Shown here: positions 3,335-46,388 of the stretch, piece by piece
Numbering within the stretch: position 1 is the first letter of the stretch
Layout: each line of letters begins with the position of its first letter
From: Hormiphora californensis
Taxonomy: Eukaryota; Animalia; Ctenophora
Assembly: GCA_020137815.1 (NCBI GenBank)
Contig: CM035362.1
Location: 4,464,001 to 4,528,000, forward strand
DNA: 64,000 bases
Direction: 5' to 3'
Program-made: the position numbers and the translations under genes
Notes under the pieces: model-generated
Told to the model about the DNA's origin: nothing
Database searches by the model: none
Seen by the model: the letters and a program-made list of their open reading frames with translations, nothing else

Positions 3335-6300
3335 TCACTGGTACTTTTTATGGTGCTTGATTCGGAACAGGTACTCGTTAACAGTCAGAACTGATCGGCA
3401 TGATGCAATCTGAAGAGAGAGTTAGATTTATTGAAAATGTTCACCCCTTTGTTGAGTGGAATACATCTATATCAACACGTCCCCCGGGATTTCGGTTAGT
3501 TTAGTTAATTAATAAACTAGTTACTAAATTAGTTACTAAATCCTATAACCCACATGAAGGTTGATTGCGTTGTAGACTTTTCTAACCAGATCAGTTTCCC
3601 TTGCCAGCGCAGAGAAATACACCTCAACCAACACGTCACACCACTGGACCACCTGATGGAATAAGTTTGGTGAACAACCCGGGACTGGGAGGGGGACAGG
3701 AACCGACCGAATCAGGAAATACTGGTCCCTGATTGCCTGATAACCAATCACGTGACCTAAATAACGGGTTCTGATTCGGTCGGTTCCGGGACTGGGAGTT
3801 AATGATATTGGGTAACAACCTGAGGGGGGGGGGGACGGTGCTGGGCACGGTGACCTACCAGCCCTGTGACCTAATCCTGTAAAACCTAGTTAGGGGACCA
3901 GAGGGTGAATCCTGGGCACAGGGTAGGTAACAAGATACATTCTGCACAAGGGGTATTATAACGGGATAGCACAAAAAGGAATGAGGTGGGTCATGCAAGT
4001 CAGTATTGTCAAATGTTCCCCTCTTACCTGAGAGAGGGTGAGTTTCCAACTTTTTACCGGAGCATTCTTTATAAACTTCTCCCCAATAACAATCATGAGA
4101 TCCTTCCCCAAACTTGGAGGGACAATCTTTAGACTCCGCTTCATGGTTGAAGGGTCAAAGGGAAGCGAGAGAAGTAGGGAGAGGATGGAGTCTAGTGTCT
4201 CCTTCTCTGTTCCGTCACAGGATGAGGAGCTGTAGAGTGGGTCACTGAGTAGGACAGAGAGGGGTGTTAGTAAATAGCTGATCCCTTTGTCTGTTGTTCT
4301 GTTTGTTTGTGTCAGTCTGTTTGTCTGTCAGTCTGTTTGTCTGTTTGCGTTAGTTTGTCTGTTCAGTTTACCTAATAATTGTGTACACTAGATCGACCAG
4401 GTGTTTCTCGTTGCAGGATCGAGAACAAGATATCAGTAGTTTGAAGGAAACTAAATCTCGACAAGCAACCAGGATTGATCCGACGGAGGCTATATTACTG
4501 AGAGAATATAAAGGTGTATTAATTCGTTAATCAGAATTAATTAGAGTTAATTGATAATTGATTAGAGTAAGTTAATTGATTTTGATGTTTAAACGCACCT
4601 GGAAGAGAGTTGCCGTGTTTTAATGAGTTTGTCCAGGATTTCCATACACCAGATACTCTCGCGATTATCCACCATTAATCGGACCACTTCGTTGATGAAA
4701 AACTTGGAAAACCGAGCTAAATGGGAAATTTTGAACTTGAAAATTGAAGAAGAAATTCTGGAAAAAAAAACTTGTTATGTTCTCATTCTCCTTATATTAA
4801 CATTTTATTTGTGGGGAAAAAGACAAAGTTATCTGCCTTCTTACAACTTTAAAAGTGGTTCCTTACCTTTCACTGTATCTTCATTCCGTTTCCTCTTCAC
4901 TCCTGTGATGTGAGATGACTTTGTTTTGGGACAAATTTGATGTTTCATGCTCCGTTTGACTAGCTTCGTGGACACCACACTTTTGACAGGCATGGCTGGT
5001 GCAGATGACGGGGCTGGGGTTGGACCTGCAGACGGAATTAAACTTGGGTCATCTGGGATAGAAAGTTGAAAGGCGAATTAGGATTATAATTACTCCCCCG
5101 ACAACTATTTCCGAACGAGAGATTATTTCAAGATGAAGTTTTACTTACATTGATGGACAAGGGCGGCCTCGTGAAAATCATTAAAATGCTGAACAAAGCG
5201 CCTCTTGCTCTTCAGGACTTTTGGAGATTGAAGTTTCTCAAGCGCTCCCCTCTCCAGCTCTGTGTAGGAGACACACCTATTCTTGTTCTTTTTCATTTCT
5301 TTTCTTTTGTGACTCCATGATAGCTTGCTGCTTCTCTCGGGAACTGCCTGTAAACTGTAAACAGAGGATTTTAGTTGTAGTTGAGTAATGTTAGTTAGGG
5401 ACAGACATGTTCACACAAATCGAGGGCTTGGTAAGGGGGAGGTAATGCTCACTGCCCACATGTTACTTTCTAAAGAGATTACAACTAAGGGATGGGGAGT
5501 GAAAATATATTACCTTCTGCATCCTACAAAGTTTGCAAGAGGAATTGAATTGTCGGGGTCATCTGGGTCAGATGGAATTACAGGTTCTTCCAGTGACTTT
5601 TCCTTTCGTACAAATTCTACTTTTAGTTGGTCCTGAAACAAATTGATATGGATGGACGATATTTTCGATTTGACAAACATGAGACAGTCGATAATTTCTT
5701 GATCTCTTGCCAGCACTGGTCTGCGCGCACACTAGGTTGTGTGTGCTCGCGCGCGAGTGTTGTTCTCTCACAGCGAGAAGGGGACAGCGCGTTACAAATT
5801 TAAAGTTAGGGTTGTGTGACTTGGACTGGGACAGGACGTGTGTACGTGACGAAATAGTCAAGCAGTCTTAGGAGAATTTCATCGGGTTCTCAAGTCACAT
5901 TACCCAACTAAGCTCAAATTTTGAAAACCAAATTCCCACATTTTGAAGATAATATCTATTGAGCATTGTGTACTGTGTAGCAACAGAGAGTGTCACTTCA
6001 GCACTGTCACTTTTTCGCTATGGACGTCATAGGAACCTGAGATATGTCGCATCACCCCTCACCTTGGCTATAATGGTACAAGTACATGCGGGCTTTGGTG
6101 TCACACTGACATAGCAATATATAATTATTATTATTATTATCTAACTAACCGATTGTGGAGGTGTAACAGCAATATAGAAACTAACCGATTGTGGAGGTGT
6201 AACAGCAATATAGAAACTAACCGATTGGGGAGGTGTAACAGGTAACATAAACTCCTCTTCAGGAAGGGTTGAATCAACAAGTCCAACTACCTCCACATCC

Positions 6301-6839
6301 CCCTTACTGGGCTGATCGGCCGCTGTAAATTGTGTGTTTAGTTTAGGAGTGAAATAATAATTTAATAAAATGTTGTAGTTTTTGTTTGTAAGCATTTCTG
6401 ATTTATTTGGTGCAAGGTATACTACCAAGTAGATAATCGACTATTAATTTGCCTAGCTAGACTCTGTTTCGGAGGGTTGGAACAAAACAACTATCAATTA
6501 CCTGTCTTCTTTCTCTTCTTCTTAGGGCCACTTGGAATGTTATTTGTTTCGTTCTCTTTCAGTGATGAATTCAGTGGATCAAGGCCCTTAGCTCGGCGAC
6601 TTTTCTGAGGAAAGCGGGGATGATTAGTTTTCTAGAAACCAGGGATTCTGTACAATATAAACATGTGCAGAACTATAAATACGTTTCTCAAATTCTCTCC
6701 AAATCTAAAGTAAACAACCAATCCGAACTCGTTATTTAGGTCACGTGACCGGTTATCAGCCAATTAGGGACCAGTATTTCCGGATTCGGTCGGTTCCTGT
6801 ACTTACCCTAACTGGAGTTGGTGGCACAATATCGATCAT
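3335..6839 (-). CDS. NOL11/Utp8-like nucleolar protein (low-complexity basic N-terminus, NOL11-like C-terminal domain), multi-exon
   Basis: In-phase exons start MIDIVPPTPVR|KSRRAKG..PKKKRKKT|..LPVTPPQS|. The C-terminus LDSILSLLSLPFDPSTMKRSLKIVPP..KLTLSQ|VVQWCDVLVEVYFSALARETDLVRKVYNAINLH|IASCRSVL..YQ* resembles NOL11 (PTLNQIMDWICLLLDANF..LLINLYKLV) by recall only. Confidence 0.6.
3697..3789. mobile_element. MITE family B copy (internally deleted)
   Basis: CAGGAACCGACCGAATCAGGAAATACTGGTCC...TTCGGTCGGTTCCGG; GACTGGGA present on both sides. Confidence 0.8.
6141..6240 (-). repeat. 36-bp tandem repeat (~3x) spanning a 5' splice site
   Basis: Unit (minus) TGTTACACCTCCACAATCG|GTTAGTTTCTATATTGC; donors after 6222, 6186, 6150. 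Confidence 0.85.
6708..6799. mobile_element. MITE family B copy (one end truncated), directly behind a splice donor
   Basis: Reverse-oriented family B sequence ending TTCGGTCGGTTCCTG next to TACTTAC (minus strand GTAAGTA donor). Confidence 0.8.
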
Positions 6840-7139
6840 TTCGTGAGTGTTAAATCATGACCTTATGCTACCGGGGGAAGGATATTGTTAGTTTGGAAAC
6901 ATTGTATGCCTTACACAAAATCTGACTCTGTGATGAGAATTGAGAGGAAAGATACAAAAATAAATGAAAAGGAAAAACAATTTGTTCTAAGTAAAATGAA
7001 TACATACATAGTAATGACATAAGTAAAATGTGCACACTGATCCGAGGGGAGATCGGGCTGACAAACGATGAGGTCAACAGATGAGTGGTTCTTGAGGAAT
7101 TGTATAGTTTGTGACAGGTAACAGGGTTTTTTTTCTAAA

Positions 7140-8640
7140 ACAAGTTAACCTCAAATATATATGTTCGCAAAAGGCAAGCTTCCCCTCGTCCGACCCGAAG
7201 TTGGAATCATATGGGCTTAGTTTGTCGAACCGGCAAGTTGCTAACATGTTTCAAATCTTCACTACTTCTCAAATGATCCCATACTTTCAGTCTAATCCCA
7301 AAATCCTAGTAAAAATAGAGACAAAAATAACGGCACCAAACTGTGAAATGCCCTTGCATTAGTGCGAGTAGAATAAAATCAATTTTCTATCTAAAGGCCG
7401 AGTTTATAGCAAGAAAGGACTATTTTACAACGAATTCTCTGGTTAGTATGGTAACCAACTCCGTTGTCATGGTAAATCAATCGAACTCTATCGAGTTCTA
7501 TCGCCAGCAACTGGATGAAAATTTATCCATTTCATTATGCACAATTCACAGGCTTTGGTTACGAAGTTACCCCTTGCCAGCGTGTGCACGCGAATTGGGG
7601 GCAAATTGTGCAGGGGCCACCCCAAAATTAATCTCTAAGTAATTAATTAATTAATTTTGACTATTCCCACTTTCTGTAGATTATATTATATGTTTTATGC
7701 ATGAAGAACATTCCTAGAAAGTTTCAAGTCGATATTTTAAGCAGAACGGAAAATATAATTTAGTGCATGGGCAAACAAAATGGTGCAAGGGCACATGTTC
7801 AGGGGAAATTTGCACAAATTGTGCAGGGGCAAATTTTAATTAATTTGCCTATAATTAATTACCTAATTGATATATTAATCATACGGCTCTTCTAGTACTC
7901 GTAGTTATGCTACTAGAACATGCATAGAAAGTTTCGTGTCAAAATATTAAACGGTGTGGACACAGTTCGATCATAAAATTGGTGCAAGGGCTGCCCTTGC
8001 ACCATTTGCCCTTGCACATTGCCTGCCCCTGCACCAAATTCCATTTTTTGCACGGCTCTAACTAACTAATTAATTAATTTTGACTATTCCCACTTTTCGA
8101 ACATCATCTTTTATGATTGAAGAACATTCCTACAAAGTTTCAAGTCGATATTTTAAGCAGAACGGAAAATAGAATTTGGTGCAAGGGCGCGGTGCAAGGG
8201 ACAGAACACGCAATGTGCAGGGGCACGGTGCCCTTGCACCGTTTTTAATTACCTATAATTAATTAATTAATTAAAAATTCAAAAATCCGCCAACGTCATG
8301 ACACAAAGGAATACTACAAGAACATGCCTACAAAATTTCAAGTCGATATCTCAAACGGTGTGGCCACAATCGTTGACATGTTTTTTGCCCCCCCCCCCAA
8401 AAAAGACCTTTCTTTGTTCTTAATAGGGCCGGCATTTTTGGGTTTTTGTGCAGGGGCAAAAAAATTTTTTTCTTTTTTTGCTGTTTTCTTCGGGTCGGAG
8501 GTGCCTGCCGGCACCTAAATGTAAACAGTAAAATCCCATGATAATATGTATAACTTGGTATCAAATTTGACCCCTCAAGTATGAAGTATTGCGGTTCATG
8601 AATTAATAAGGTTTACGCTAGAATTTAGCCCCCGTTTAGC
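7140..8640. mobile_element. Non-autonomous DNA element with internal ~400-bp duplication and TGCAAGGGC/TGCAGGGGC subrepeats (Helentron/HINE-like, tentative)
   Basis: Duplicated blocks 7640-7790 / 8060-8190 (TAATTTTGACTATTCCCACTTT..AAAGTTTCAAGTCGATATTTTAAGCAGAACGG) and many direct/inverted GTGCAAGGGC motifs; no credible ORF. Confidence 0.45.
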
Positions 8641-8843
8641 TAATCCCAATTTTAATCTAAAAGGTACACACAAAACAGCTGGCGAGCATCTCATTTGGCT
8701 CTTCGAGGCGGACCATATTATTCAAAAGTTTTTATTTAGAAACTAATAATGTTCTTTCCCGTTACGATAGTCTAAGTGAATAATCCTCTGATGGCGCTTG
8801 AGAGAAAACGATCACTGCTCACATTTATAGGGCTGTTCTCTGA

Positions 8844-10750
8844 TCACCGGAGTCTGGTGTGGGACCTAATGTGACTTTGAAGGTGACTAGAAGTTTTACA
8901 GCCTTTTCCACAATCCTTACATTTGTAGGGCCGCTCTCCAGTATGGGTCATCATATGATATTTAAGAGAACTTGTATTAGTAAAGCCTTTTCCACACTCC
9001 TTACATTTGTAGGGCCGCTCTCCAGTATGGATCATCATATGATATTTAAGAGTACTTGTATTATTAAAGCCTTTTCCACACTCCTTACATTTACAGGGCC
9101 GTTCTCCGGTATGGATCCTCATGTGAACATTTAGATTACCCTTTGTGTTAAACCCTCGCCCACATTCCTTACATTTGAAAGGCTGGTCTTCAGTGTGAAT
9201 CCTCATGTGTTTTTTCAGAGCACGAGCTTCATTAAATCCCTCTTTACACTCTTTACATGTGTAGGGCCGAATTCCATTATGAATCGTCATGTGACGATTA
9301 AGGTCACTAGACTGGTGGAATGCCGTTTTACACTCCTTACATTTGTAGGGCCGCTCCCCAGTATGGTATCTCATATGAGATTTAAGACCACTTATATTAG
9401 TAAAGCCTTTCCCACAATCCTTACATTTATAGGGCTGTTCTCTAGTATGGGTCATCATATGATATTTAAGTTTAGTTGAAGTAGTTAACCCTTTATCACA
9501 TTCCTTACATTTATAGTGCCGTTCTCTAGTATGGGTCATCATATGACTTTGAAGGTGACTAGAAGATTTAAAGCCTTTATCACATTCCTTACATTTGTAG
9601 GGCCACTCTCCAGTATGGGTCATCATATGATATTTAAGAGTACTTGGATAAATAAAGCCTTTTCCACACTCCTTACATTTACAGGGCCGTTCTCCGGTAT
9701 GGATCCTCATGTGAACTGTTAGATTACCCGATTTATTGAACACTTTCCCACATTCCTTACATTTGAACGGCTGGTGTCCAGTATGGATCCTCATATGAAC
9801 TGTTAGATTACCCTTTTCCTTAAACTCTTTTCCACACTCCTTACATTTGAAAGGCTGGTCTCCAGTGTGTGTATTCATGTGTTTTTTCAGATCACGAAAA
9901 TTAAATCCCATTTTACACTCTCTACATTTATAGGGCCAAACTCCAGTATGATGAATCATGTGACGATCAAGTTCACTAGACTGGTGGAATGCCATTTTAC
10001 ACTCCTTACATTTGTAGGGACCTTCTTCGATATGCGTCCTCATATGATCTTTAAACTGACTCGAAGTAGTAAACGCTTTTCCGCAATCCTTACATTTGAA
10101 GGGCCGATCTCCAGTATGGATCCTCATGTGCAATTTAAGGGTACTAGAATGCCTAAAACCTTTTTCACACACATCACACACGTATGGACGTTGAGGAGAG
10201 ACAATAATTTCACTGGGGACAGCCGTTAGTTCAGTTTCACAATCATCTGTACCGTAATCGTCCTTTTCTCCAGAGTCCGTCAAGATTTCTGCTGGTATTT
10301 CACCTGAGAAGGAAAATTAAATGTTAGAAAATCAAATTGCAAACGACTTGGACAACTAGAAAAGATTAAAATATAATCAGTGAGACTGGATAACTCACCA
10401 ATTTGTGGAAGTGATGAAGCAGGTGTGTCAGAATTATCAAGGAAGGAAGAAAACTCAACTGGCTCCGTTTTAACAGGTCCACAATCGAACAACGACTTGA
10501 TATGAACCGATTCAACTGGTTCAGTTTTAATATTCAACAAATCAGGATCCTCTTTACACGAAACTTCCTCTTCACATTTGATAAAGCCACACTTCACATC
10601 TTCATTGTCTGCTTGTTCTGTTTTCACTGGTGGTTGTTCGTTAACAAGGATCTGCTCTGTTTTTAGGAAAGGTCGTGGAGAAAATACGATACCAGTCTGA
10701 TCTCCCCACTGTATGGTATCGGCTGCAGGTGGAGTCCCGGTAGTGCTCAT
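8844..10750 (-). CDS. Tandem C2H2 zinc-finger protein (16 fingers, ~603 aa, 2 exons)
   Basis: Exon 10750-10399 (ATTG|gtgagt) joins in phase to exon 10303-8844 (ttctcag|GTGAAA); 16 CxxC-x11/12-HxxxH fingers with TGE(R)PYKC linkers. Confidence 0.92.
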
Positions 10751-11037
10751 TTGTTACATAAGACACTGCTAAACGGGGAGGGGGGGGGTAAGCAAGATGA
10801 TAATCCGGGTTTATAAGTGAGTTTTGAAATCGGACACAATATTGAGAAGTGTGGAATAAAATCAATAGCTTATCAGAGATAGATATAAAGTCGGATTCCC
10901 GTCGGATTTTTGAAAATGACAGTTGTCACACACATGTGATATCCATCAACTGAGCTTGAGAAGCCATAATCATTTCGGTATCTAGGGACAATACAAAAAA
11001 GACAAAAAGGCACAATAATTTATTTTAAGTAAAATAA

Positions 11038-13209
11038 CTTTCGCTATCAAATTAGCTACGGAAGTAGTTAATCCTCTTCACCTTTCGGCATACGTTGCAT
11101 CTAGACTTGTCCCTCTGAGCAAAAAACCATCTGGAATCCGCCCAATCGGGATTGGTGAAGTCTTACGCCGGCTAGTCGGCAAGGTGATTACCCGCTCACT
11201 GAAACCTAATATTGTTGAATCTACCGCCCCGATACAGCTATGTGCTGGGCTGGAGAGCGGAGTAGAGGCTGCCGTGCATGCAGCGAGAGAACTGTTTGAA
11301 TCCGGGAAATGTGAGTGTGTGCTATTAATTGATGCAAGTAATGCTTTTAATTCCTTAAATCGAAATGCTGCTCTAAATAATATTAAATACATTTGCCCTG
11401 AGTTTGAGCATTATTTAAAAAATACATATGGTTTAACATCTAACTTATTCCTATGCGATGGAACTAATCATGAAATTATTAAATCTGCTGAAGGGACGAC
11501 CCAGGGTGATACTGCGGCCATGTTTATGTACGCCAGCTGCCTTATGCCCCTTGTAATTTCATTGAAGGACATTGAACAGGTTACCCAGATATTTTATGCC
11601 GATGATGGCCTGGGCGGAGGGACTTTGGCTTCTGTAAATCAGTGGTGGGATAAAATCAAACTGAAGGGACCTGAATACGGCTACCTACCCAATCCAGGAA
11701 AATCTTGGTTGATTGTTAAACCTCACCTGGAGGACGAGGCAAAAGCCCTTTTCCCTGATGTTAACATTACCACCGAAGGGCAACGTTACCTGGGATCGTA
11801 TATCGGAACTAAGGAAGGTCAGGACAAGTTTGTTCAGAAAGAGGTAGATAAGTGGGCTGCAGAAATAACATCACTTGCGGAGATTGCAAACAGTGAGCCT
11901 CAGCTTGCTTATACAGCCTACACCATGGGAGTATCTAAACGGTGGTCGTATCTTATGAGAACGACTCCAGGCATTTCTGATCAGTTGGGCCCGATTGAGG
12001 ATTCAATTCTGCAGCAACTCATCCCTTCTATGACTGGACAACCTGTTATCAACGAGAGACTTCGATCAGTTTTCTCTCTTCCAGCGAGATTTGGAGGACT
12101 CGGGATTCAAAACCCTGTCGCTACATCGGATAGCGAGTACTATTTCTCCAAACTCATGACTGAAAATCTGTCCGCAGCTGTGCTGAACCAGGAAGATACG
12201 TTTACTGCAGATGATGTCAAAAACTCAGAGAACAAACTCATTGTGCGTCGAACGAAAAACGAACAACATCAGACGGCAATCGATCAAATAAAATCAAAAT
12301 CGACACCAGAAGAGAAGAGGACCCTCGATCTCCTGGCCGAAAAGGGTGCATCCTCCTGGCTAACTTGTCTCCCACTAGAATCTCTTAACTTCACTCTAAA
12401 CCGACAGGAATGGTTCGACGCTATCTCGGCTAGGTACAATCTCCCCCTTGTTGGCGAACCTCTACCAGATCAGTGTACATGCGGAGAAGCTAACAGTATC
12501 GATCATGCTATCTCCTGCAAGCTTGGAGGATTTGTTAACTTCAGGCACGACAACGTGAGAGACTTTATTGCGAAAGAGCTTAGCACTGTCGGCCTCGATA
12601 CCAAGGTCGAACCTCACCTTCTCAACGTTCGGGGGACGTCCCTTCCAGCTGGGACCATCACAGCAGACGGGGCTCGCCTTGACATCAGAACCCGTGGACT
12701 CTGGTCAAGCTTAGACTGTACCTATTTTGACGTAAGGATTTTTAATCCAAGGGTAAAGTCTAATGCCAACCAGAGTATACAGAAGACCTATGAGAAGCAT
12801 GAAACTGAGAAGAAGAAAGCTTATCTGCAACGAGTTCTCCAGGTTGAGAAGGCGGTGTTCACTCCGCTTGTCATGTCAACATCAGGCGGACTTGGTAGAG
12901 AATTTCAGAACACACTGAAACAGTTGGCCCACCGAAAATCTTCAAAAACTGGATATGAGCGCCAGGACTGTATTCGGTATCTTAGACTGTGCTTATCATT
13001 TGCGATGGTTCGCTCAATAACTGTATCGATTAGGGGATATCGGGGCAGGGGCAAGGCAGCTGCAAGTGACGCTGATGAATATTTATATCGTATGGACTAA
13101 TTCCACAATAATTTATTGATTCCATTTATTTCTACTGTATAATTTATTATATTTTAAGGCCGATATTGGCCGCCCCCCCCCCCAGTAAAATCAAACCATA
13201 ATAAAACAC
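11038..13209 (+). mobile_element. 5'-truncated CRE-clade non-LTR retrotransposon (RT + CCHC + restriction-like endonuclease); ORF open ~11040-13100
   Basis: RPIGIGEVLRRL, DASNAFNS, QGD, YADD RT motifs; CTCG..DHAISC, RHD, ARLDI..DV..HETEKKKAY REL domain; imperfect TSD TATTTT(C)TAAGTAAAAT at ~11021 and ~13210. Confidence 0.9.
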
Positions 13210-13367
13210 TATTTTCTAAGTAAAATTAATAATGGAAACTCCGTTAAAATTAGAGTTGTAATAAGTATAAGGGCTATCATTATCTCCCACTATTAGAGTG
13301 AGGTAGTCACGTGACACGATAATTGGGAGAGAGACCGGTAGACAACGCATTTCCGTGTGTTGCCATA

Positions 13368-13373
<6 letters not shown>

Positions 13374-13460
<87 letters not shown>
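13374..13460. repeat. (GA)n microsatellite
   Basis: Pure GA run. Similar GA/CT runs at 24769-25037, 29548-29650, 30776-30930, 32118-32216, 40181-40256, 48925-48972, 49190-49272, 50716-50810, 51301-51372. Confidence 0.95.
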
Positions 13461-13462
<2 letters not shown>

Positions 13463-13565
13463 TTCTATCCGCTTGTATCATTTCATTTTAGAGAACTCTA
13501 GTATAACAGTCTATGTAGCTTCTTTAGTTTGTATGATGTCTCTGGTTGATTCCCCCGTATAAACC

Positions 13566-13805
13566 ATAGTTAATAACAGTTAACTAACAGTGCAACTAAC
13601 AGTTAACTAACAGTGCAACTAACAGTGCAACTAACAGTTAACTAACAGTGCAACTAACAGTTAACTAACAGTGCAACCAACAGTTAACTAACAGTGCAAC
13701 TAACAGTTAACTAACAGTGCAACTAACAGTGCAACTAACAGTGCAACTAACAGTGCAACTAACAGTGCAACTAACAGTTAACTAACAGTGCAACCAACAG
13801 TGCAA
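13566..13805 (+). repeat. 11/12-bp minisatellite (CTAACAGTTAA / CTAACAGTGCAA) ending at the acceptor before an ATG
   Basis: Last unit CAACAG|TGCAATGAGG leads into the ORF MRKGDELLDWGK. Confidence 0.85.
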
Positions 13806-16800
13806 TGAGGAAGGGTGATGAGTTGCTAGACTGGGGAAAATATGACCATGTACCCCCAACTCATTACAACATTTACAGGTAAATAAATCCCCCCTATTTA
13901 TTATTTTAGCTGAAATTTATCTATTGTTCCCCAATAAATCACTGCATTTTCAAACGGAAAGAAACTCATTTTATCTTTTCCAGTGACGTGTTACTTCGAC
14001 CTGAACCCTCTGATTCACGTCTTCAAAAAAGGAGGGCGCTGGCACGGGACTTGGAGGAGAATTCGCCCCCACCTGTACCTTCTAAAACAACCGTGACACT
14101 GAGACCACAACGCGTCGCAGAGTTAAGAGGTAGGTAACAGGAACCGACCGAATCAGGAAATACTGGTCCCTGATTGGCCGATAACCAGTCACGTGACCTA
14201 AATAACGAGTTCTGATTGGCTGTTTACTTGTTTCGGTCGGTTCCTGGTAGGTAATGAGAACCTGTTAGATTCGCCTTCAATAACTAAAGAAGTTAGCCCA
14301 CCATCAATGATCAACTAATGGATATCTGTAGGCTCGGGTAGACTTGATATTTCTTATTTCTTGCTCCCTTTTATGTAAAACATTGAGTATTGACCATTAC
14401 ACAGCCAATCTGGGTGTTTTACAGTAGTTTAGTAATTGGGTTAAAACACCAAGGTGCAGGAATGTGCGTGTGTGTGAGTGTGAGTGTAACTTCAATACAA
14501 TATAGGTATCTCCCCCCCCCATGATATAATCCATTCTACAGCAAAGATATACGGTGGCCCGGTGAAGGATAGAGAGCTCTGTGATTACATTGCAGTATGG
14601 AAGGATGGAAAGGACATGAAACTAACTTTCAGGTAACAACACACTTTACTACACACACACACACTAATTTTTACTTTTAGATACTTTAAACTTACTCTTT
14701 CACAAAATCCCTAGAAGTTATTTATTATTTAATCATCCAGACATTCTGTTACCCCTCCTCCCGTCATATCACCCCTAGCTATAACACTCAGATCGTCCCC
14801 TAGGCCCCTATTCACCTCCCCCAGCCCTCGGGCCTCTCCTACTTACCCTCTCCCTACTTATACTCTCCTCCCCCTAATTCACCCTTTCCTCCCCGTCAGA
14901 TCGCCTCCTAGTTACCCTCTCCCCATCCCCGTTAGGTTCAGACCGCACTTAGTTTTTAATAGTTCCCTCTCCTCCCCCTAGTTACCCCTCCTCCCCGTCA
15001 GATCGCCGGAGCAGCTCGTCTACAATGAAGCAGCAATGATGCGACAATATGATAGAGCCATGGGAGGACACATATCTCACGAGAACGGTGAGAAAATAAA
15101 TCGGTATAAACAGTACCACAAGATTCGCTTTAAATTCTAATAACCCCATTAGTTGTCACATATGGAGACGACCTCCAAGAAGAAGAAGATACGTACCTAT
15201 GTTTATAGTAGAACCCCCTTCTCCTACCCCGAACCCCCTGGACTTCTCCCTAAAACTTATTTGTAAATCTAAAAGTGTACACATGTTTCAGATGTGAATG
15301 GTGTGTTTGATAAGACGACCCAGACAATAAAACCAACACTAACCCGCCGCCGACCTAAACAAGCAAAAACCCTTCACTCCCAACTGTACTTCTACAGGTA
15401 CATGCAGTATCTTGCTGGTGGAGCATTCGTGGGCCTCGTTTAACCGCGCTTCGCACGGGAGTAGTATCTTGCTCGCCCTCTCTCATCTCCCGTCTTTCGT
15501 ATAAGTGGCTCCCTAGTTATTATTGTAAGGCCCCGGTACTAGTACTAGCCATGTATCCCTTGCAGAAGTGGTTAACTGTCCCCCTTTCCCAGATACCTAA
15601 CAGCTCAGCCATACACCTCCCTACCAAAACCGCCCTAGAAACACCCCTGAACTGTCCCCCTTTTTCCAGATACCTATTACCTAACAGCTCAGCCATACAT
15701 CTCCCTACCAAAACCGCCCTAGAAACACCCCTGAACTGTCCCCCTTTTTCCAGATACCTATTACCTAACAGCTCAGCCATACATCTCCCTACCAAAACCG
15801 CCCTAGAAACACCCCTGAACTGTCCCCTTTTTCCAGATACCTATTACCTAACAGCTCAGCCATACACCTCCTTACCAAAACCGCCCTAGAAACACCCCTG
15901 AACTGTACCCCTTTTTCCAGATACCTATTACCTAACAGCTCAGCCATACATCTCCCTACCAAAACCGCCCTAGAAACACCCCTGAACTGTCCCCTTTTTC
16001 CAGATACCTATTACCTAACAGCTCAGCCATACACCTCCTTACCAAAACCGCCCTAGAAACACCCCTGAACTGTACCCCTTTTTACAGACGGCAGACACCT
16101 AACAATATTCATGTAACTCCCAGATACCTAACAATATTCTTGTAACTCCCAGATACCTAACAATATTCTTGTAACTCCCAGATACCTAACAATATTCTTG
16201 TAACTCCCAGATACCTAACAATATTCTTGTAACTCCCAGACACCTAACAATATTCTTGTAACTCCCAGATACCTAACAACATTCTTGTAACTCCCAGACA
16301 CCTAACAATATTCTTGTAACTCCCAGACACCTAACAATATTCTTGTAACTCCCAGATACCTAACAATATTCTTGTAACTCCCAGACACCTAACAATATTC
16401 TTGTAACTCCCAGATACCTAACAATATTCTTGTAACTCCCAGATACCTAACAATATTCTTGTAACTCCCAGACACCTAACAATATTCTTGTAACTCCCAG
16501 ACACCTAACAATATTCTTGTAACTCCCAGACACCTAACAATATTCTTGTAACTCCCAGATACCTAACAATATTCTTGTAACTCCCAGATACCTAACAATA
16601 TTCTTGTAACTCCCAGACACCTAACAATATTCTTGTAACTCCCAGACACCTAACAATATTCTTGTAACTCCCAGACACCTAACAATATTCTTGTAACTCC
16701 CAGACACCTAACAATATTCTTGTAACTCCCAGATACCTAACATCCCAGCGGATATCAGAGATCTCAGAGTGCAGGTACCTGAGGACCAGAGCGGGAACTA

Positions 16801-16940
16801 CTAAACCCGTCCTTGAACCCAAGACAAGGGCCCTGGTTGAAAACAAGACCCTCATTCCAAACCAGCTACCGCCACTGAAACCTCACAAAAGTGGCTCTCT
16901 TAGGAGGCAGCAGATGAAAAACATGTTCAATATGCAGTGA
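13805..16940 (+). CDS. Uncharacterised multi-exon protein
   Basis: In-phase exons 13805-13878, 13984-14129, 14542-14632, 15002-15088, (15153-? optional), 15292-15397, 16733-16940: MRKGDELLDWGKYDHVPPTHYNIY|SDVLLRPE..ELR|AKIYGGPVK..LTF|RSPEQLVYN..|DVNGVFDK..YFY|RYLTSQRISEISECRYLRTR..MFNMQ*. Confidence 0.7.
14138..14246. mobile_element. MITE family B copy, perfect TSD GTAGGTAA = intron +1..+8
   Basis: TSD 14130-14137 and 14247-14254. Confidence 0.9.
15575..16090 (+). repeat. 83/84-bp minisatellite (~6 units), each with a CCCTTTTTCCAG|ATACCT acceptor copy
   Basis: AGs end at 15592, 15669, 15753, 15836, 15920, 16003, 16087. Confidence 0.9.
16092..16741 (+). repeat. 29-bp minisatellite (~22 units) ending in the inferred true acceptor
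   Basis: Unit AATATTCTTGTAACTCCCAG|AYACCTAAC; the final copy opens the last exon at 16733. Confidence 0.92.
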
Positions 16941-19077: not shown

Positions 19078-19304
19078 TTAGAGAGAAAAGCATTTTTTTA
19101 AAAAAAGACAATAAAAATTATAATAAACTAGAAAACCCGTTGAAGTAAAGCGTAACTGTGAACTGAATACGACACGGGCATGTACTATAATAATATACCC
19201 ACTATAGAACGCCATGAACACTGCACCCTGAACACTCTGAACACTCTAAACACCCTGAACACCACGAACACTGCACCCTAAACACCCTAAATACTCTATT
19301 TACA

Positions 19305-19827
19305 GATCCGTGAATTAAAGGAGAATGTTGAATACATGTTTGGATACACCCTCTCGTGCCCCGAGGACTCACAGTTCTCTCTTGTATCTCTCTATGCTGA
19401 ATCACCAACTCACAATCTTCTCTTCAAGAAGTTAGTATGGATCGAGTTAGTTACTTATTATATTTTCTCACAAAACTTAGTGGATGAACGGGGAGTTAAT
19501 CAACAAAGAGTAATGCAGTCGGACCCTGATATAACCTCCCCCGCCCCCATATATAGGAAATTAACAGTATTTGACCCTGATTCACTGGGCTCCCTGATTT
19601 AACGAGCTCACGATTATTAAAATTTCAAAATTCCCTACTAAATTAATTTATTAAATTCGTTTTCTTTGGTTTTCGTATTAAATCCCGATATTAATTATGT
19701 TTCTCCTCCAGGTGCGAGGGAGCATTCCAATTGGTGGAGACGAAATACACCAGTTCCATTGACATGCAGGCCCACTTGTCAAAGTTTACACAACACAGAT
19801 CATTGCCACTCTTCCTGTGCGATGTAG
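19305..19827 (+). CDS. Last two exons of an uncharacterised gene (upstream exons not identified)
   Basis: tttacag|IRELKENVEYMFGYTLSCPEDSQFSLVSLYAESPTHNLLFKKLVWIE spliced in phase (GA|gttagt..ctccag|G) to ECEGAFQLVETKY..HSSCAM*; AATAAA ~19888. Confidence 0.55.
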
Positions 19828-21026
19828 CCTCCGATCTGTATCACCGCAGAACCATCATGGACTGATGGATTACTGGAAAGACTCTGGAATAAAGACATTA
19901 TAAAAGAGAACCGAGACAATTTGTCAATCGGTTTGCTTTTGAAAGAGAAGTTGAGACAGACATATCCTAAGTTTTAACCCTGAATTTTATACTTGTTTCA
20001 CATTTATTTACTTGCCCCATTAAATTTATGTTTTTTACTTTTGTGATAAACACAGAAGCGCTCTGATTTCTCGCCCCATTTTGGCCCACTTTGCTCGATA
20101 CATGTCGGGAACGCGCGATGACCACACGCAGTGAGTGAATATTGCGCGCAAACTTGGTACCTTCAGTTCAACCGGACAAATTAAATGTGGCACGCGTCTT
20201 TTTGTAGTTAACGGTGCAAACAACTGCCGCGCGCTCGCGATTTCTTTGCATTTTATTTGGAAACAATTTATTTAAAAAAATTCGCACCTTTTTGAAACTT
20301 TTTGCGTTTCGTGTTGACCATGAATTAATTTATTATATAAGAACTCCGGTCAGTTCTCATCTTGCCAATCCGTTTTCCGGGAACCCCTGGCCAAAGGACA
20401 TTAAAATTCACATAACGACCAAGTTTCATATCGATTGGATAAGATTTTGGGTGGCTACGGTGAAAAATATCGTATTTTTGGCATTTTTAACTTTCCCGAC
20501 GCGATTTACGACCCTTAAACATTGAGTTACGGCAAATCGCTATCATGTAAAATGAAGTTCAAACGATTCTCTTTCCCCACTATTGCGTTAGTTTTTTGAT
20601 TTAGAGCCGTTTTCAGGGTCTTAGAAGCGTTTGAAAAATGTAAGTCTTTTTGTCGCAATGACGTCACCCCGTGACGTCACTGCTGTAAAGATCGGATCAA
20701 AAATCTGAGCCCGTACTTACATCCGCCTTGGTCCAAGGTACCAGTGTACAAATTTTCAGGGGTCTAGCTCAAAAACTGTGGGAGGAGTTTGAAAAACCAA
20801 TTAACGGACAGTCTGACTAACAATTAACATTATGGAATTTATTATATGGATTACCCACACACCTTCATACTCTCATTCTCCCTCTCTCTGCTCACTTATC
20901 TCGAAAATCTACATCTTCCACACTGACTTTTTTTCTAAAAGGGGGTTAAAATGGTATTAGATAACAATATCAATATGAAAATACCGGTCTCCCATGGGGG
21001 AGAAGATTAATAAATTACTGCATTGA

Positions 21027-21776: not shown

Positions 21777-22662
21777 TTCATCGATTTTGGCGTTCGAGAC
21801 GGGTTAGGGCTGTTGTTAGGGTTGGGTTAGGGTTCTGTTTGGGGTTATCGGTTAGGGCTATCGATTCTCTATCAGATACCGTTTAGTTTACTCAAATCGG
21901 CCATGTGGTTGCGTGGCTATAGCCGTTTGAAAAAAGTCGGTCTAAGTGGTTTCAGGTGTACTTTTTTTGGCAGCGTGCACCTGTAAACACGCTGCAAGGC
22001 ACCCAGATTATAATCGCGCCCCTCTGCAGCGCTTTTCAGAGTTTTTGGTTGGCAAACGTTGCTGGCCCCCGCAGCGCGGGATAAGGCAGCGCTTTTCAAA
22101 GTTTTTGGCAACTTTTGTCGCTGCGAAAAATAAAAATGCCGTATCGCAACGCGCGGCGCAGTCAACAGGGACGCGCAAAACCAAAATTAACGCCGCGCAC
22201 ACCGTTTTTTCGCTTGAAATGCTGTTTTTTCCAAATTCAACCTTTTGAAAAAGGCGACTTTCTGGAACCATTTTTTAAAACTCACCAAAGTCCAAAATAC
22301 TTGATAAGTAGCGAGAGGAAACGTCCAGAAACACAATAGTGAACCATAATAAAGTTCATGAGCGTCCAAGAGCGCACCCCATCCAAAAGAGACCAAAATC
22401 AAGAGCGCACCACAATCAAGAGAGCTCCCCATGCAGAAGATACCAGATGTGGTGCGCTCTTGAATTTGGTCTCTCTTGATTGTGGTGCACTCTTGAGTTG
22501 GTCTCTCTTGATTGTGGTGCGCTCTTGATTTTGGTATTTCTTGGACAGCCGAAAAGGTCGGCCAAATACATCATCAGACATCAGTATTCTATCTTTTAGC
22601 ATTCTAAGCTCGGTCTTTGGTGGTCTCTAATCGTTGACCTTTAATTAGCGGACTCCTAAAAA

Positions 22663-24022
22663 ATGTCGACTTACTTCTCTGCCAACCAGGTACATGCTGA
22701 CACACTTGAGAAATTTTATATTAGAGAGGGCGCCGTTACGATCTGGGTGTTTCGTGGCCTGTTTACAGGTGCACGCTTCCAAAAAGTTGATTGACTAAAA
22801 TGGCTCTAAATGGCTAATTCAAATTTTATTTGGTAGGAAATGTCAAGGCCTAACCCCAACCCAAACCCCGATCCTAACCCTAACCCTACTTTTCAATTCA
22901 AATAATTTGCGCACAAATACACAGGATATTTAAAAAAATAAACCTCCTCATTAGTCATTAATAACACACCAGCTCAGCAACAAACAACATTCATCAAGAT
23001 TGGAATTGATCAGGACGCCACTGCAGGATAGAGTTGTTGTTCGATTGAGATGGATACCCGATAATAGCCCTAACCCTAAAAAACCGTTTGTCAGCACTCA
23101 CGAAACACCCAGATTTTATGGCTAGCCCATTAGAGAGTGCACTGTCACCATTTTTTATTTAAATTTATTATTTATTCACTATTGAGTGGGATAAGTGCAT
23201 AATTTACATTTACACAAGTGAAATGAGCATAATTGTAGAACATCAATCACTGAAGAGTTGCATCCCTCTATCTACATCTATTTGTGTACATTGAACCCCT
23301 CACTGCTTCGGACACCTCCTATCTCCATAAAACCCTCACTGATTCGACCATAAACCCTCTCTTTTTTCAGTATGAGGATGCCTATCGAACAATCAGGCTA
23401 CAGAATTACCAGCTACCTGCTCACACTAGCTCCCATCATACGTTCAAAGAGGTTAGTTGTTTATGTCCAGTGAATAACAATCGTCACTCAACCGGTCCTC
23501 TAGTCTGTCCAGTGAATTGTTTAAAAACGTTTTCCTGTTAACACTTGATCTGAAATTAATCGAAATCGAACAAGATATTATTCCTAGAGGCCTAGTACCC
23601 GTGTTGGTGCTACAAGGATCATCTCTAATGACAGAGGGACATATAATTGAGCCTCTACGGAGATCTCAGGAGTCACCGTGGGGAACTTTCTTAGGAACTT
23701 GGGACATGGAACGAACCAAAACGAGGACGTCACTTGTGAGTTACTCAGTTAGGTACCATTGAGTTATCATTGAGGGCTTACTTCTCAATGAAAAATGAAG
23801 ACTTGTCCCGGGTCTTGATTTAACCTAATAATATGAAAGTCTTGATTTACAATTTACAACAACAAGATTTATATAAATGAGATCATGGACTAACCTCAGG
23901 AGAGGACTAAATCTCCAGTGAAGACGGAGGCCGAAGTACAAACCGGGACACCCCCTAAACTGTCACACACCCCGCCCCGAACTGCGAGCCCTGCTAAATC
24001 ACCTGGTAAACTATTCTACTAA
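22663..24022 (+). CDS. CFAP126: Flattop / cilia- and flagella-associated protein 126 (apparent 1-bp frameshift ~23637)
   Basis: MSTYFSANQ|YEDAYRTIRLQNYQ..|RPSTRVGATRIISNDRG(fs)HIIEPLRRSQESPWGTFLGTWDM matches the Flattop hallmark MATNYSANQYEKAF..IIANDRGHLL..PWGSFMGTW; exons 22663-22689, 23371-23451, 23588-23735, ~23900-24022. Confidence 0.88.
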
Positions 24023-24261
24023 CACTACTTGTTTTGTTCAAACTCATTTTGGGTCGAACAAGGAAAACTACATACTACACCGCACACACACATTAATAAT
24101 AAGTGTTGTTTAAATTGTGAAAATGGGCACTTTAGAAAGACAGGAACTGGGCATATATTTTATTTTTAAATAACGCTCAACGTCACCAAATATTCAAATA
24201 AAATTTAACACATTTTTCAAAGTTCACACACACACAGTTTTAAAGCAAATTCTATAACTCT

Positions 24262-25467
<1,206 letters not shown>

Positions 25468-26397: not shown

Positions 26398-41499
<15,102 letters not shown>

Positions 41500-41771
41500 G
41501 GGCATACAAAAAACGGTTTTGAATTCTTTTTATACTTTTTTCTGTAAATACTTTTTTATCTTTTTTTAAAGAGCCTGAATTCTGATCTGTGTTTGCTAGG
41601 GGGATCAGTTACTTGATAAAACGGACATTTTTTCACAGGATAGCGAAAATAAATTGAGTTGAAAGAGGAAGTAACATTATTACTCAGATCTCTTTATTTA
41701 GAAGTGTTTTTGAAAGTATTGAATACTGTAAGATGCCATGGTTTGCTAGGAAGGTGAAGGATTTGAGGGTA

Positions 41772-41902
41772 CAGTCGGACCCCGATTTACCGGGATACTC
41801 GGGGGAAAGGGTTTTGCCCGGTATAAATTGGGGTCAAATACTGTTAGTTTCTTATATCGGGGGAAAAGAAGTTTATCCTCCCGGTAAATCGGGGTCCGAC
41901 TG
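41772..41902. mobile_element. MITE family A copy
   Basis: TA-flanked TIRs as above. Confidence 0.88.
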
Positions 41903-42087
41903 TATATTATTGGGAAGCAAAGATATGAATTTTTGTTCGGTACTAAAATAGTAAAATAAGAAGTTGCAAACTCAGTTTAAACCCGTTATATTCTTGTATT
42001 TTTATTTGTTCCATATCGAGATGCTTGTTAGTACAGGCTGGAAAACCTGCTACATAGTACATGCTTGACCCCGCTTTACCGGGAGTC

Positions 42088-42413
42088 CTGACGGTGTATA
42101 AGGTTCAAATGAGGCACGGAGTTTTTCTGAATCAGCTTTTCAAGACGAATCCAACGCAATCGGAATTAGCTTTCTATCTTATCGGGAAGGTGTGGTTCAC
42201 TTTTTTCATCTTTAGCCGCGCGAGCCAATCAGAGGGCTGGATTTCGAAATTCTGGCCTCTGATTGGCTCGCGCGGCAAAAATGACTAAAAATGAGCGTGA
42301 GTGAACCGAACCTTCCCGATAAGATAGAAAGCTAATTCCGGTTGCGTTGGATTCGTCTTGAAAAGCTGATTCAGAAAAGCTCCGTGCCTCATTTGGACCT
42401 TATACACCGTCAG
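42088..42413. mobile_element. Foldback element (~115-bp arms, central CCAAT palindrome)
   Basis: CTGACGGTGTATAAGG..GGTTCACT inverted at 42300-42413. Confidence 0.8.
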
Positions 42414-42699
42414 ACTCAGTCCGGCTGTATAATATGCATGACCAGAGATTCACCATGTATCCCATTAGAGAATGAGTCCCCCCCCCCCCGAGAATTAGGG
42501 CAGCTTGTAATTCATGGGATCATTATGTTCTGGAAAATGGGCTTCTTTTAAAATCTCTCCGCTGTTCACAAAACGTAACTTGTTTTGTACAAACAGGGTG
42601 GAACAAGGCAAAACGTATAACAAAACGGTTTTGTATGAAAACAAAAATCAACAAATGCACATTAATAATTTCCTAGTCTCAAATAATATTTCTCTTCAA

Positions 42700-43091
42700 G
42701 GGTCACCACACACAAAAGTTAAAATTAAAATTAATTTGACGTTTTTGGTCATAACTCTGCCATTTCTTGGTAAAATTGCTTCATTTTGGGCTTGTTGGAA
42801 AGAGGGCATCGAGCCCGTTCTGAACAGCCCAAGAAACTTGAAATCGGCGCAAAGTTCGCGGCGTTAAGGCGCATAATGCGCGCGTTAAAATTTTAAAATT
42901 TTAACACACACATTTTGCACTGTAACGCCGCGCACTTTGCGCCGATTTCAAGTTTCTTGGGCTGTTTAGAACGGGCTTGATGCCCTCTTTCCAACAAGCC
43001 CAAAATGAAGCAATTTTGCCAAGAAATGGCAGAGTTATGACCAAAAACGTCAAATTTTAATTTTAATTTTAACTTTGGTGTGTGGTGACCC
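42700..43091. mobile_element. PIF/Harbinger-like foldback MITE (GGG..CCC ends, 3-bp TSD CAA)
   Basis: CAA|GGGTCACCACACAC..GTGTGTGGTGACCC|CAA with ~170-bp arms. Confidence 0.78.
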
Positions 43092-43327
43092 CAAGTGTCA
43101 ATGACAGCGTAAAAAACAGCGGAATTTAAATTCTCAATTATTGTAAACTTCTTCAGGGCCAATATACCCTTCCTATCCTGCAGCTGTAGCTCAAAATATA
43201 TCAACCCCCTTATCAAATTTAGTCAATTTCAGTTCAATTTAGTCCCTTCCTCATATTATTGTTATTAAACCCATTCAGTTGAGTCTGAACCGGTCATCTG
43301 TTAAAATCCAAATCATATCCCTCGCGA

Positions 43328-46287
43328 TCATCCGTCATAGTCTGGTGGTTTATCAACCGCTGTAGTTAATCTAACTGCTAATTCTGTGGGGGGAGGGGGT
43401 TCATTTATCATCACGATGCGGATAAAAAACATTTTATTTATACTGTTGCACAACTTAGTGGATTAGTATTACTTTGATTGCTGCAAAACTTTATTTGAAC
43501 CATGACTATATAACTACCGAGAATAAGGATCGGTTGATTGCTTATTAGCCGCATAATCAGTGAATAAATCTTGATTTCTCCTTCCAGTTGGAGAAATCAA
43601 GATAATTTATTCACTATATAACTATTAACTATACCTGTAGGGGGAGGCGAGGAGGAGTTCCTAGATCTTCTAATTCTCCGGGATACCTTGTACATAATAA
43701 ATAGGAGAAGTATCAACCCCGTCAATCCACCCACACCTGCAGGAATAATTAGTAATTTAGTATCAATTAGTGTAAAAAGTGGGTTACAAATTCAAAAAAT
43801 CTGAATTTAGACCTCCATTTCTTATTACTACATTACACCTGCACTATAGGTACATAATTCTATACAGTATAGAACATATTATATAAATTCAGATATTATT
43901 ATTCTGATAATATTTTCAGATATTATTATTATTCTGATAATATTCTCGGTGGGAGGTACTAGCTAGGTACACTTGTGACGTCAATGATCACTATATAGAT
44001 CTGACAGATGGCTGTGAGAATGGACCATAGAGGAAGGCTACTGCATGGTGACATTGCACACTGAAATGTCGCTTATACATATGTATATTTAACGGTCAGC
44101 CTTCAAATAGTATTATATTTTCTAACAGAGCTGCTTCAAGGTCTTCTATATCTTTTATACTCGGCCAGTCTCCAGAAGACTTATAATTTATATTCTCAGA
44201 GCCACACATTATAGGACTACAGCTGAGTCACTCAGTATAAATAACATAAAATGTGATGACACACACACATACCGATAGCGATAAGTCGCAGGAGGTAATT
44301 TTGAAACTGTTCTCTTTTCTCATCGGGTGACTCAAAATCGTGTTCCCCGTCTGATACTTTACCTGGGGGAAAATGGGTGAATTTAGTTAGTTAAGTACTT
44401 GAACATATTCGCACAATGAGTAGCACTATGACGTATCCTATAATAAAACATCGTAAATGTAGGACAAAGGGCCAGTACACGACTGGCTTAAATATATGAG
44501 TTGTCGTGTGCTGAACTGTCAGAGCATTGGCCTGACCCATTCTCGTTTCACGCGGAGCGCACGAGAACTGTGTTCAGAGCATTGGCCTGACAGCTACAGG
44601 TGCTGAATAATATCTGAACTCACTGTCGAAGAGAAGCAACAACAGGATAGTTACCCCACCCCCACCATCACCCCTCCACCCTAACCACCCCAACCTCCAC
44701 CCCTCCCGTCCCCCGTATAATTTAACTTACTGGCTTTGTAATCTCTGAAAGCTCCAGAACTACCGTATGCTCGACAACCAAACTTAACATTCGACATCTG
44801 AGGGATCAGAACTGTAATACAAGAATGCAGTATTGCAGTATTGGTGTCAGAATTTGTTGAATAAGGCGGGTGTGACTGTCAATAGTTGATAGAATCGAAA
44901 CCGGAATCAAAACGGGGTCTTGCACAGCGCCAGACAACTACACGGATCTGTGTACCTTGAGTATGGAGTAATCGTAGAGTGTGATGGAATTATGTCGTGT
45001 TACGAACTGTACATCAGTTCCAGCTATTTTGGAGGAGTTTTGACTTCCTCTCAGACTGTAGAGCTGTTCATCGTGGGAGATATAGAACTCGTATCTAGGG
45101 GGATATTTGTTGAGTAAGGGGTACTCAACAACAGATATGTTTGATTTTGCAGGCTTCTCTAACGATACTACTAACGATACTAGTACTACCCGGTACACGC
45201 ATGATCAGGGGACTGTAACACATGTCAATGGGCGAAATAATACCTGTTAACATGTGGTGATGTGATGCAGAGGTACCACAGAGTTGAGTTACAGGTTTTA
45301 GGAACGAATTCGTAGATGTGTGGTGGGGATAACTCCTTGAAGACCTGGGAAATACATGTTAGATAATGGGGTGGGGCAGGTGGGTGGGGTGGGCAGGGTG
45401 GGGTTAACTCCTTGCAATATGGGTGGGGGCGGGTGGGGGTCAAGGATCTAAAACAAATATAAAACTTTAAACCAGCACCTGTAGCACGTATGCATATGAA
45501 GGTTTCCGATCAGTGCCAGTCTGTTCATAACAGTAGTAATGTCCACTATCCCCCTCCTTAGCAGATCTGATCACTATCGTACTTCTCAGACAGATTCCTG
45601 GGTCGTTAACCTCAAATGAGTCACAATGCTGAGGGTTACCGCACCTAAAGCGAGAGAGAGGGTGAGAGAGAGGGTGAGGAGGGGTAGTTAAATCTGATTG
45701 TTGAGTAAGGGTTTACACAAACAATTGGACTATGACTATTCCCAAATTTCTCCCTTACATAATACATATCGGGACAAGAGAGGGAATTCACTTGCCTTGT
45801 TCGACCCACCCTGTTTGAACAAAACAAGATTTAACTGCGATTAACAGCTCCTACCTATTAGTGGTTGATATTTCATAATCGGGTGCCCTCAGATTCTCCC
45901 TCTTTTTCTCTCCCTCCTTATCCCCAGGTAAGACTCTGTACCATCCTATACTCTGGCCAGATGAGGTACAGTGTAACGTCACCGCATCACCAACTTGGGC
46001 TACCTGTGAGAGATTGTTACATTAACTAGAGAGAGATTGTTACATTAACTAGAGAGAGATTGTTACATTAACTAGAGAGAGATCGGTACATTAACTAGGG
46101 AGAGATTATTACATTGACTAGAGCGAGAGAGAGATTGTTACTTTAACTAGGGAGAGAGAGCAGAAGTGAGAAATCTGAGCTGTATAATAGGTACCTGGTA
46201 CTGATAAAATCCGGTTATAGCGTGAACACTACCGTCGTCAGATAAAAAGAATGATAACAACAGGGAGAGGAGTATTGTTTGGTGCAT
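43328..46287 (-). CDS. Type-I single-pass Ig-domain membrane protein with cytoplasmic PPxY (middle exons not fully resolved)
   Basis: MHQTILLSLLLSFFLS signal; VGDAVTLHC..IGWYRV..IVIRSAKEGDSGHYYC (V/I-set Ig); TM LLRLIAIGVGGLTGLILLLFIMY then KVSRRIRR; ends DKPPDYDG*. Confidence 0.72.
44516..44599. mobile_element. Micro-element family F (CTGT..ACAG, direct subterminal repeats, 8-bp TSD GTGCTGAA)
   Basis: TSD 44508-44515 / 44600-44607; related to 51886-51963 and 47371-47393. Confidence 0.75.
46004..46160 (-). repeat. 24-bp repeat TTAATGTAACAATCTCTCTCTAG ending in the true acceptor
   Basis: Final unit ..ATCTCTCACAG|GTAGCCCAAG; same motif at 53567-53650. Confidence 0.8.
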
Positions 46288-46388
46288 CACATTGCTATAG
46301 AACAGATTTAGAGAGATTGTTAGGGGAGAGGAATATTGTTTGGTGCATCACATTGCTAGAACAGATTTAGAGAGATTGTTAGGGGAGA
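46263..46388 (-). repeat. 61-bp duplication of acceptor + start-codon region
   Basis: TAG|CAATGTGATGCACCAAACAATA at 46355 and 46294. Confidence 0.85.

Follow-up and report, generated by a model that had tools for sequence, protein, structure and literature searches.

Tandem arrays at splice junctions in a ctenophore genomic window resemble the mirage minisatellites of amphioxus

Tandem duplications crossing intron-exon borders, termed 'mirages', have been described in amphioxus, in the globin genes BflGb6 and BflGb9 (PMC3087553) and also in PGBD5, Adh3 and troponin C (PMC3902484). According to the accessible parts of these papers, mirages vary between haplotypes, carry diverged edge units and leave splicing normal, and they may, it was proposed, occur throughout the cephalochordates (PMC3087553, PMC3902484). 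Somatic length instability is reported for the Adh3 case. In humans, as far as the available text goes, a 37-bp variable number tandem repeat (VNTR) in intron 7 of F7 provides a donor-side model (PMC1557585), and internal tandem repeats have been reported at exon-intron boundaries of genes in segmental duplications (PMC2812944). Here, we analyse 64,000 nucleotides of the ctenophore Hormiphora californensis (contig CM035362.1 of assembly GCA_020137815.1, positions 4,464,001 to 4,528,000; the window), in which an earlier note had reported tandem repeats built from the adjacent splice junction. These arrays are real and are a dense new example of the already described mirage kind; the note knew of no description of it as a genome-wide pattern, and the pattern itself is on record in amphioxus (PMC3087553, PMC3902484).

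Arrays were located with Tandem Repeats Finder (TRF), and their overlap with junctions was scored against nine hand-built gene models, namely A1, A2, a zinc-finger gene, B, a MAD1-like gene, a Flattop-like gene, D, a matrix metalloproteinase gene and an Ig-like gene. Together, the models give 111 junctions (59 acceptors and 52 donors) with long open frames, broken only in the Flattop-like gene by a shift of 1 nt, and the modelled introns have a median length of 200 nt, or 183 nt once repeats are collapsed. All arrays named in the earlier note exist at about the positions it gave, and its count of seven arrays in five genes stands; they are not all independent, since the 84- and 29-bp arrays copy one and the same junction, so that only six junctions are marked (five acceptors and one donor), with an older relic adding a seventh. 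A junction-spanning copy is thus found on the intron side of 6/59 acceptors and 1/52 donors (7/111 modelled junctions). As modelled, the units hold the end of an intron and the start of an exon, or the reverse, with the spare copies on the intron side. The earlier note had taken this common geometry as informative; it is indeed seen throughout, but whenever a junction is duplicated in tandem, a single copy stays joined to the exon and all others come to lie towards the intron, and the geometry is therefore uninformative on mechanism.

The splice-site dinucleotide (GT or AG) is intact in every listed copy of the 36-, 12-, 84-, 29-, 67-, 63- and 61-bp arrays and is lost only in a weak relic at 889. 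Outer copies have diverged from inner ones in the 36-, 63-, 67- and 84-bp arrays, and the outermost 84-bp copy matches the real last-exon junction of gene B over 6+10 nt. Among three relics that had been listed as weaker, the one at 14749–15001 is solid, with 13+6 nt exact across the junction in the stretch 14887–15007, while those at ~850–905 (0+4 nt) and ~45400 (exon start only) are weak. The units are unrelated in length and mostly in sequence, as had been claimed, with the exception of short words shared by the 61- and 23-bp units (13 nt) and by the 84- and 29-bp units (11 nt). Introners or transposon-made introns were rejected as a source, the junction arrays being locus-specific, with no mutual match in self-comparison beyond such words. 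A lean towards frame-keeping unit lengths (36, 63, 84 and 102 versus 29 and 67) was also set aside, as the cases are too few and the 84- and 102-bp units carry stops. Arrays with 51- and 121-bp units match dispersed elements and were not counted as junction arrays.

Table 1 Tandem arrays and relics at or near modelled splice junctions of the window
Feature	Position	Strand	Details
36-bp x2.8 donor array, gene A1	6143-6241	-	TRF; unit = 20 nt exon end + 16 nt intron start
11/12-bp x20 array, before first exon of gene B	13574-13805	+	TRF; branch-like motif + AG; ATG at +5
Old 102-bp relic, exon-4 acceptor of gene B	14749-15007	+	Copies at 14900 and 14792; real acceptor 15002
84-bp x6 array, last-exon acceptor of gene B	15575-16088	+	TRF x5.9 at 15594-16088
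29-bp x22 array, last exon of gene B	16092-16742	+	TRF x22.4; 19 nt intron end + 10 nt exon start; modelled acceptor 16733
Degenerate 9/50-bp repeat	19207-19298	+	Stops 7 nt short of acceptor, not spanning; absent from earlier note
67-bp x2.3 array, last-exon acceptor of small secreted-type gene D	24332-24484	-	TRF
63-bp x5.6 array, exon 11 of matrix metalloproteinase gene	32236-32589	+	TRF; 25 nt intron + 38 nt exon
23-bp x6 array adjoining exon-2 acceptor (46003) of Ig-like gene	46008-46160	-	TRF
59/61-bp x2.1 duplication across first-exon acceptor (46294) of Ig-like gene	46263-46388	-	TRF
Weak relic of acceptor 39 nt upstream, AG lost (at 889)	850-905	-	0+4 nt exact
Weak relic of exon start without acceptor copy	45335-45430	-	Layout comparison

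To follow copy use and array length, we drew on public runs from organism A (the same species, two samples) and organism B (a related species), of which X1, X5 and X9 are DNA, X8 is RNA and X7 is probably RNA. RNA contigs confirm four consecutive introns of gene A1, the only one of the nine models with RNA support for its exon borders, and set its acceptors at 5025 and 4716; as this relocated two initial guesses, the remaining models may contain errors. At the 36-bp array, the modelled donor follows 6222, and the spare donors would add 36 or 72 nt in frame and without stops. Matching of RNA contigs at 85% likeness was dominated by transposon matches, and the exon length at 6222 was therefore obtained by depth arithmetic. 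The bin with A1 exon 6222–6322 contains 106 nt (X8) and 102 nt (X7) of contig cover, the bin with the outermost spare donor contains zero, and the same arithmetic returns the expected 45 nt for the neighbouring A1 exon. These depths fit the exon-proximal donor at 6222 (101 nt plus shared edge letters) rather than 137 or 173 nt, the joint itself not being among those listed.

For acceptors, reading frames point the same way at several loci. All seven upstream sites tried in the 29- and 84-bp arrays truncate the gene B protein, as do both sites of its exon-4 relic, and all six sites of the 23-bp array truncate the Ig-like protein. The claim that the exon-touching copy completes the open reading frame is thus borne out at 16733 and 46003, but in the 63-bp array four of the five spare acceptors would lengthen the protein in frame by units of 21 residues (the outermost causes a frameshift), and all three copies of the 67-bp array yield a short open tail in gene D. 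Single-exon protein searches with the last exon of gene B and exon 10 of the metalloproteinase gene returned no homologue to fix the copy used, and the X8 RNA run gave no cover of Ig-like gene exons. The suggestion that arrays are tolerated because the exon-proximal site is chosen is accordingly backed by RNA depth at donor 6222 and by frame at 16733 and 46003.

Because the acceptors of the 12- and 61-bp arrays belong to first exons and precede the predicted start codon, these arrays offer no reading-frame test. Leader trans-splicing is common in this species, with 56% of Iso-Seq reads carrying a leader according to the available text of PMC8527503, which also gives the leader sequence. Two exact 36-nt matches to the leader lie in the window, at 37469–37504 (-) and 56610–56645 (+), with none in 100 shuffles, and the first ATG falls 3–19 nt past an acceptor-like AG in six of six first exons. 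Judging from the leader copies, the ATG spacing and the published trans-splicing (PMC8527503), the acceptors of the 12-bp (13801) and 61-bp (46294) arrays are likely to be trans-splice sites. Each leader copy also lies just upstream of the first open frame of a retroelement (36087–37367, -; 56645–57988, +), which may represent leader capture by, or leader-like signals in, non-long-terminal-repeat (non-LTR) elements.

Array length was compared between reads or contigs at two of the eight arrays, those with 23- and 61-bp units, and differences appear at both. In the second individual, an X5 contig that runs on out of the exon lacks 67 nt of the 23-bp array, which is shorter there by that amount. 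At the 61-bp duplication, X5 shows zero cover at 46298–46323, with a bin depth of 131.8 that equals a single listed record; in organism B, the exon and the first copy are covered and 46324–46394 (the second copy) is not; and X1 DNA contigs show extra cover at 46253–46323 beyond one listed record (79.8 versus 31.4). These contig holes, as indirect evidence, fit a 61-bp duplication present in some haplotypes only. Since both arrays differ in a second individual or a related species, an artefact is unlikely at either of the two. A 2-nt indel distinguishes one 61-bp copy from the other and perhaps also separates single-copy alleles in X5, in which case the duplication may have been born by unequal crossover between alleles.

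We next asked how often arrays would meet junctions by placement alone. An ungapped scan gave 38 local repeat clusters, which became 35 after two coding zinc-finger clusters were dropped and two rows merged; 17 of these are transposon-free within positions 1–46,700, the rest being transposon-internal (11, from a hand-drawn mask) or past the last modelled gene (7). Under a null that places each unit uniformly on the repeat-collapsed sequence, 7/17 clusters span a junction against 3.2 expected with transposons masked (P=0.02) and 4.4 expected when placement is confined to introns, again with transposons masked (P=0.10); the other 10/17 span none. Without first-exon acceptors, the count is 5/15 versus 2.9–3.9 (P=0.13–0.35), and for frame-supported junctions alone it is 4/14 versus 2.6–3.5, at which point the excess vanishes. 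Inside modelled introns, 5/13 compares with 3.2 (P=0.18) or 2.3 (P=0.051). The enrichment over random placement expected by the earlier note is thus weak and null-dependent in this window (P 0.001–0.49 across nulls, with a masked excess of about 1.6–2.2-fold), and an about two-fold junction excess is possible but unproven.

Taken together, we consider it probable that the arrays are mirage minisatellites, that is, ordinary short duplications that often cross junctions because introns are short, and that are kept since splicing uses the exon-adjacent copy. The first event would be a slippage or unequal-crossover duplication of 12–100 nt, placement alone putting 5–55% of such events across a junction. 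Exon-internal duplications would be purged, and junction-crossing ones would be neutral if the exon-proximal site wins, as the indirect RNA evidence supports at one donor and as is presumed for acceptors. The doubled unit would then be re-amplified and homogenised like any minisatellite, the diverged outer and near-identical inner copies indicating repeated rounds of amplification, and array length would come to differ between individuals or species, as observed at two loci. Splice-anchored mutagenesis is unproven and unneeded for explaining the window.

Several points weigh against this explanation. The observed count exceeds expectation under every null, most strongly under the laxest, unmasked one (7/17 versus 1.9, P=0.0009), and it does so for all 35 non-coding clusters (7/35 versus 3.4, P=0.042) and for arrays with at least three copies and a unit of at least 20 nt, 4/5 of which span a junction versus 1.3 expected (P=0.015; a subset picked post hoc). 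Uniform placement also predicts no lean towards acceptors, which are copied at 6/59 versus 1/52 donors (P=0.12), a ratio that becomes 8:1 with abutting arrays included (P=0.035). The transposon mask, like the gene models, was drawn up by hand. Copy use in the acceptor arrays was judged from reading frames only, RNA evidence being confined to one donor, and this RNA comes from environmental samples, whose animals may lack the 36-bp array.

A real bias to intron 3' ends would account for the lean to acceptors and could be driven by sequence rather than by the spliceosome, with pyrimidine tracts and CTAAC-type motifs sharing short homology with the nearby exon and thereby promoting slippage, and with an acceptor-like dispersed 23-bp repeat adding to the effect. 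The six acceptors copied against one donor, and the two arrays abutting acceptors, fit this proposal. The exon part of the 29-bp unit repeats the branch-like motif, and a short pyrimidine match is present at either edge of the 61-bp unit; these edge homologies were, however, judged by eye and without a null, in one 64-kb window, and when only spanning arrays are counted, the excess at acceptors is not significant. We regard such a bias as unlikely.

The 23-bp repeat had been described as an acceptor-only unit of 24 bp; it is 23 bp long, contains no exon bases and recurs in the window at 46636, 53568 and 53622, as the 3'-end proposal would have it. In X1, X5 and X9, its contig depth exceeds that of the exons nearby by a factor of tens up to a hundred, a rough guide only. 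Its presence at other sites and its depth in DNA runs indicate a dispersed family that happens to adjoin an acceptor, and we rejected it as a junction-built unit, since a mirage unit is copied from the adjacent junction together with exon bases. The family (46008–46160, 46636–46656, 53568–53660 and 30255–30317) resembles a branch point, pyrimidine tract and AG, and is abundant in DNA runs of both species. Its member at 30255–30317 is a related 33-bp pair, antisense in a metalloproteinase intron, which was rejected as a junction array because it is wholly intronic.

Transposon insertions bear on whether junctions attract mutation more generally. A 110-bp high-copy element with CAGG ends and an 8-bp target duplication has donor copies at 983–1090, 6708–6799, 14138–14246 and 31722–31830 and other copies in the window at 3697–3785 and 29819–29927. 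Four of its six window copies thus lie at most 9 nt from a donor, three of them with an 8-bp duplication of donor sequence from intron base +1. From its ends and target duplications, we take the element to be hAT-like. A 40-mer from it had no match in metagenome contigs (a 24-mer matched two short contigs), and the element had none in prokaryote genomes and viral contigs. It is quite unlikely, in our estimate, that junctions are true germline mutation hot spots, with duplications beginning preferentially at cis- and trans-splice acceptors, the hAT-like element homing to donors, and spare intron-side splice sites left behind by each. A mechanism of the kind favoured by the earlier note would have duplications, and transposon insertions too, arise at junctions from R-loops or breaks that accompany co-transcriptional splicing; we hold it to be very unlikely. 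The excess over all nulls and the insertions within the first nine intron bases of donors speak for it, the latter set beside 14/109 GTRRGT sites that are modelled donors. Yet the excess is small and null-dependent (P=0.18 inside introns, and gone for frame-supported junctions), no link of events to transcription is seen, two element copies outside the window (L001 and L002) both appear by eye to lie away from donors, and the insertions at donors could reflect a preference for certain target sequences.

Use of the spare sites, whereby arrays would adjust the length or dosage of proteins through alternative splice sites, is highly improbable. The spare sites of the 36-bp array and four of the five of the 63-bp array keep frame without stops, and border repeats yield alternative transcripts in human paralogues, according to the accessible text of PMC2812944. 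Against this, RNA contigs fit the proximal donor only, the 29-, 84- and 23-bp and relic sites truncate the protein, and the two arrays examined for length vary between individuals or species. That the arrays are assembly artefacts is barely credible: the comparison of array length was made with contigs and covered the 23- and 61-bp arrays, not the long 12-, 29-, 63- and 84-bp ones, and a 1-nt frameshift in one gene may be an assembly error, but copies bear their own substitutions and indels, the relics are too old and diverged to stem from collapsed reads, three DNA runs contain the 23-bp unit in abundance, and X1 DNA contigs show the extra cover given above.

The window also contains other dispersed elements. 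A second small inverted-repeat element with TA targets occupies 37976–38136, with others at 252–412, 24577, 27036, 41770 and 63099, and one of these six copies sits within the TA of a donor's GTA. An L2/CR1-type retroelement at 32668–37650, in a metalloproteinase intron, is flanked by a 139-bp inverted repeat pair and has open reading frames at 33164–35590, 35539–36204 and 36087–37367 (-); the best named relative of the window's retroelement protein is from Mnemiopsis leidyi (47%). Another dispersed element, palindromic and only some 40 bp long (45792–45827 and 24020–24065), has high depth in three DNA runs.

Six exons were scanned against Pfam; Peptidase_M10 was found in one, from the metalloproteinase gene, one gave a weak match below the cut-off and four gave none, the single Ig-like exon scanned being without a match. 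The labels MAD1, Flattop and Ig stand for presumed resemblances. One A2 exon has 74 relatives in a protein search, none of the ten looked up bearing a name, and the best supports the 2016/1915 intron. The MAD1-like gene shows two 3' exons at 19306–19900 (+), with no upstream exons found nearby, and a long intron may enclose genes A1, A2 and B together with the zinc-finger gene. The frameshift of the Flattop-like gene (22650–24030, +), near 23640 within a G run, is an assembly error or a null allele. Upstream of gene B, at 13358–13372, lies what we take to be an X-box-like motif, suggesting a ciliary gene.

If the arrays are ordinary duplications, mirages extend to a ctenophore and perhaps to trans-splice acceptors, with no new mechanism. 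They are natural tests of acceptor choice, with up to 28 intact spare acceptors ahead of one exon. A genome-wide matched enrichment, if real and joined by the donor-targeting element as further evidence, would bear on intron growth and duplication-based intron gain. If junctions were hot spots, the polymorphic arrays would amount to a natural experiment across the genome, informative on both acceptor choice and splicing-coupled mutagenesis. A literature search that mostly lay outside subscription journals found no report of mirages in a ctenophore or at trans-splice acceptors, nor of a genome-wide enrichment test. The amphioxus mirage literature also cites Canestro et al. (2002).

As far as the accessible text of the amphioxus papers allows comparison, the arrays described here share with mirages units that span 5' or 3' borders, unit lengths that are unrelated (10–160 bp in amphioxus, 12–102 bp here), spare AG or GT sites that are kept, outer units that escape homogenisation and the occurrence of several arrays per gene. 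Copy number likewise varies between haplotypes, here from contigs at two of eight arrays. Splicing is normal in amphioxus where tested, and the indirect RNA evidence at one donor here would fit this. They differ in their ctenophore host, in their density of seven junctions in about 46 kb, and in that two arrays lie at likely trans-splice acceptors. The 36-bp array resembles the human F7 VNTR, in which, from the available text, the first unit spans the border, intact downstream pseudo-donors are silent and the proximal donor is used (PMC1557585). F7 is a single donor locus shown with mutant constructs, whereas the arrays here are mostly on the acceptor side, where the used copy would be last in transcript order. 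The border repeats of human segmental-duplication genes are similarly variable and can offer alternative splice sites; in the accessible part of that report many create new introns or alternative transcripts (PMC2812944), unlike the arrays of this window, where no such use is seen and the closest likeness is to the mirages of amphioxus.

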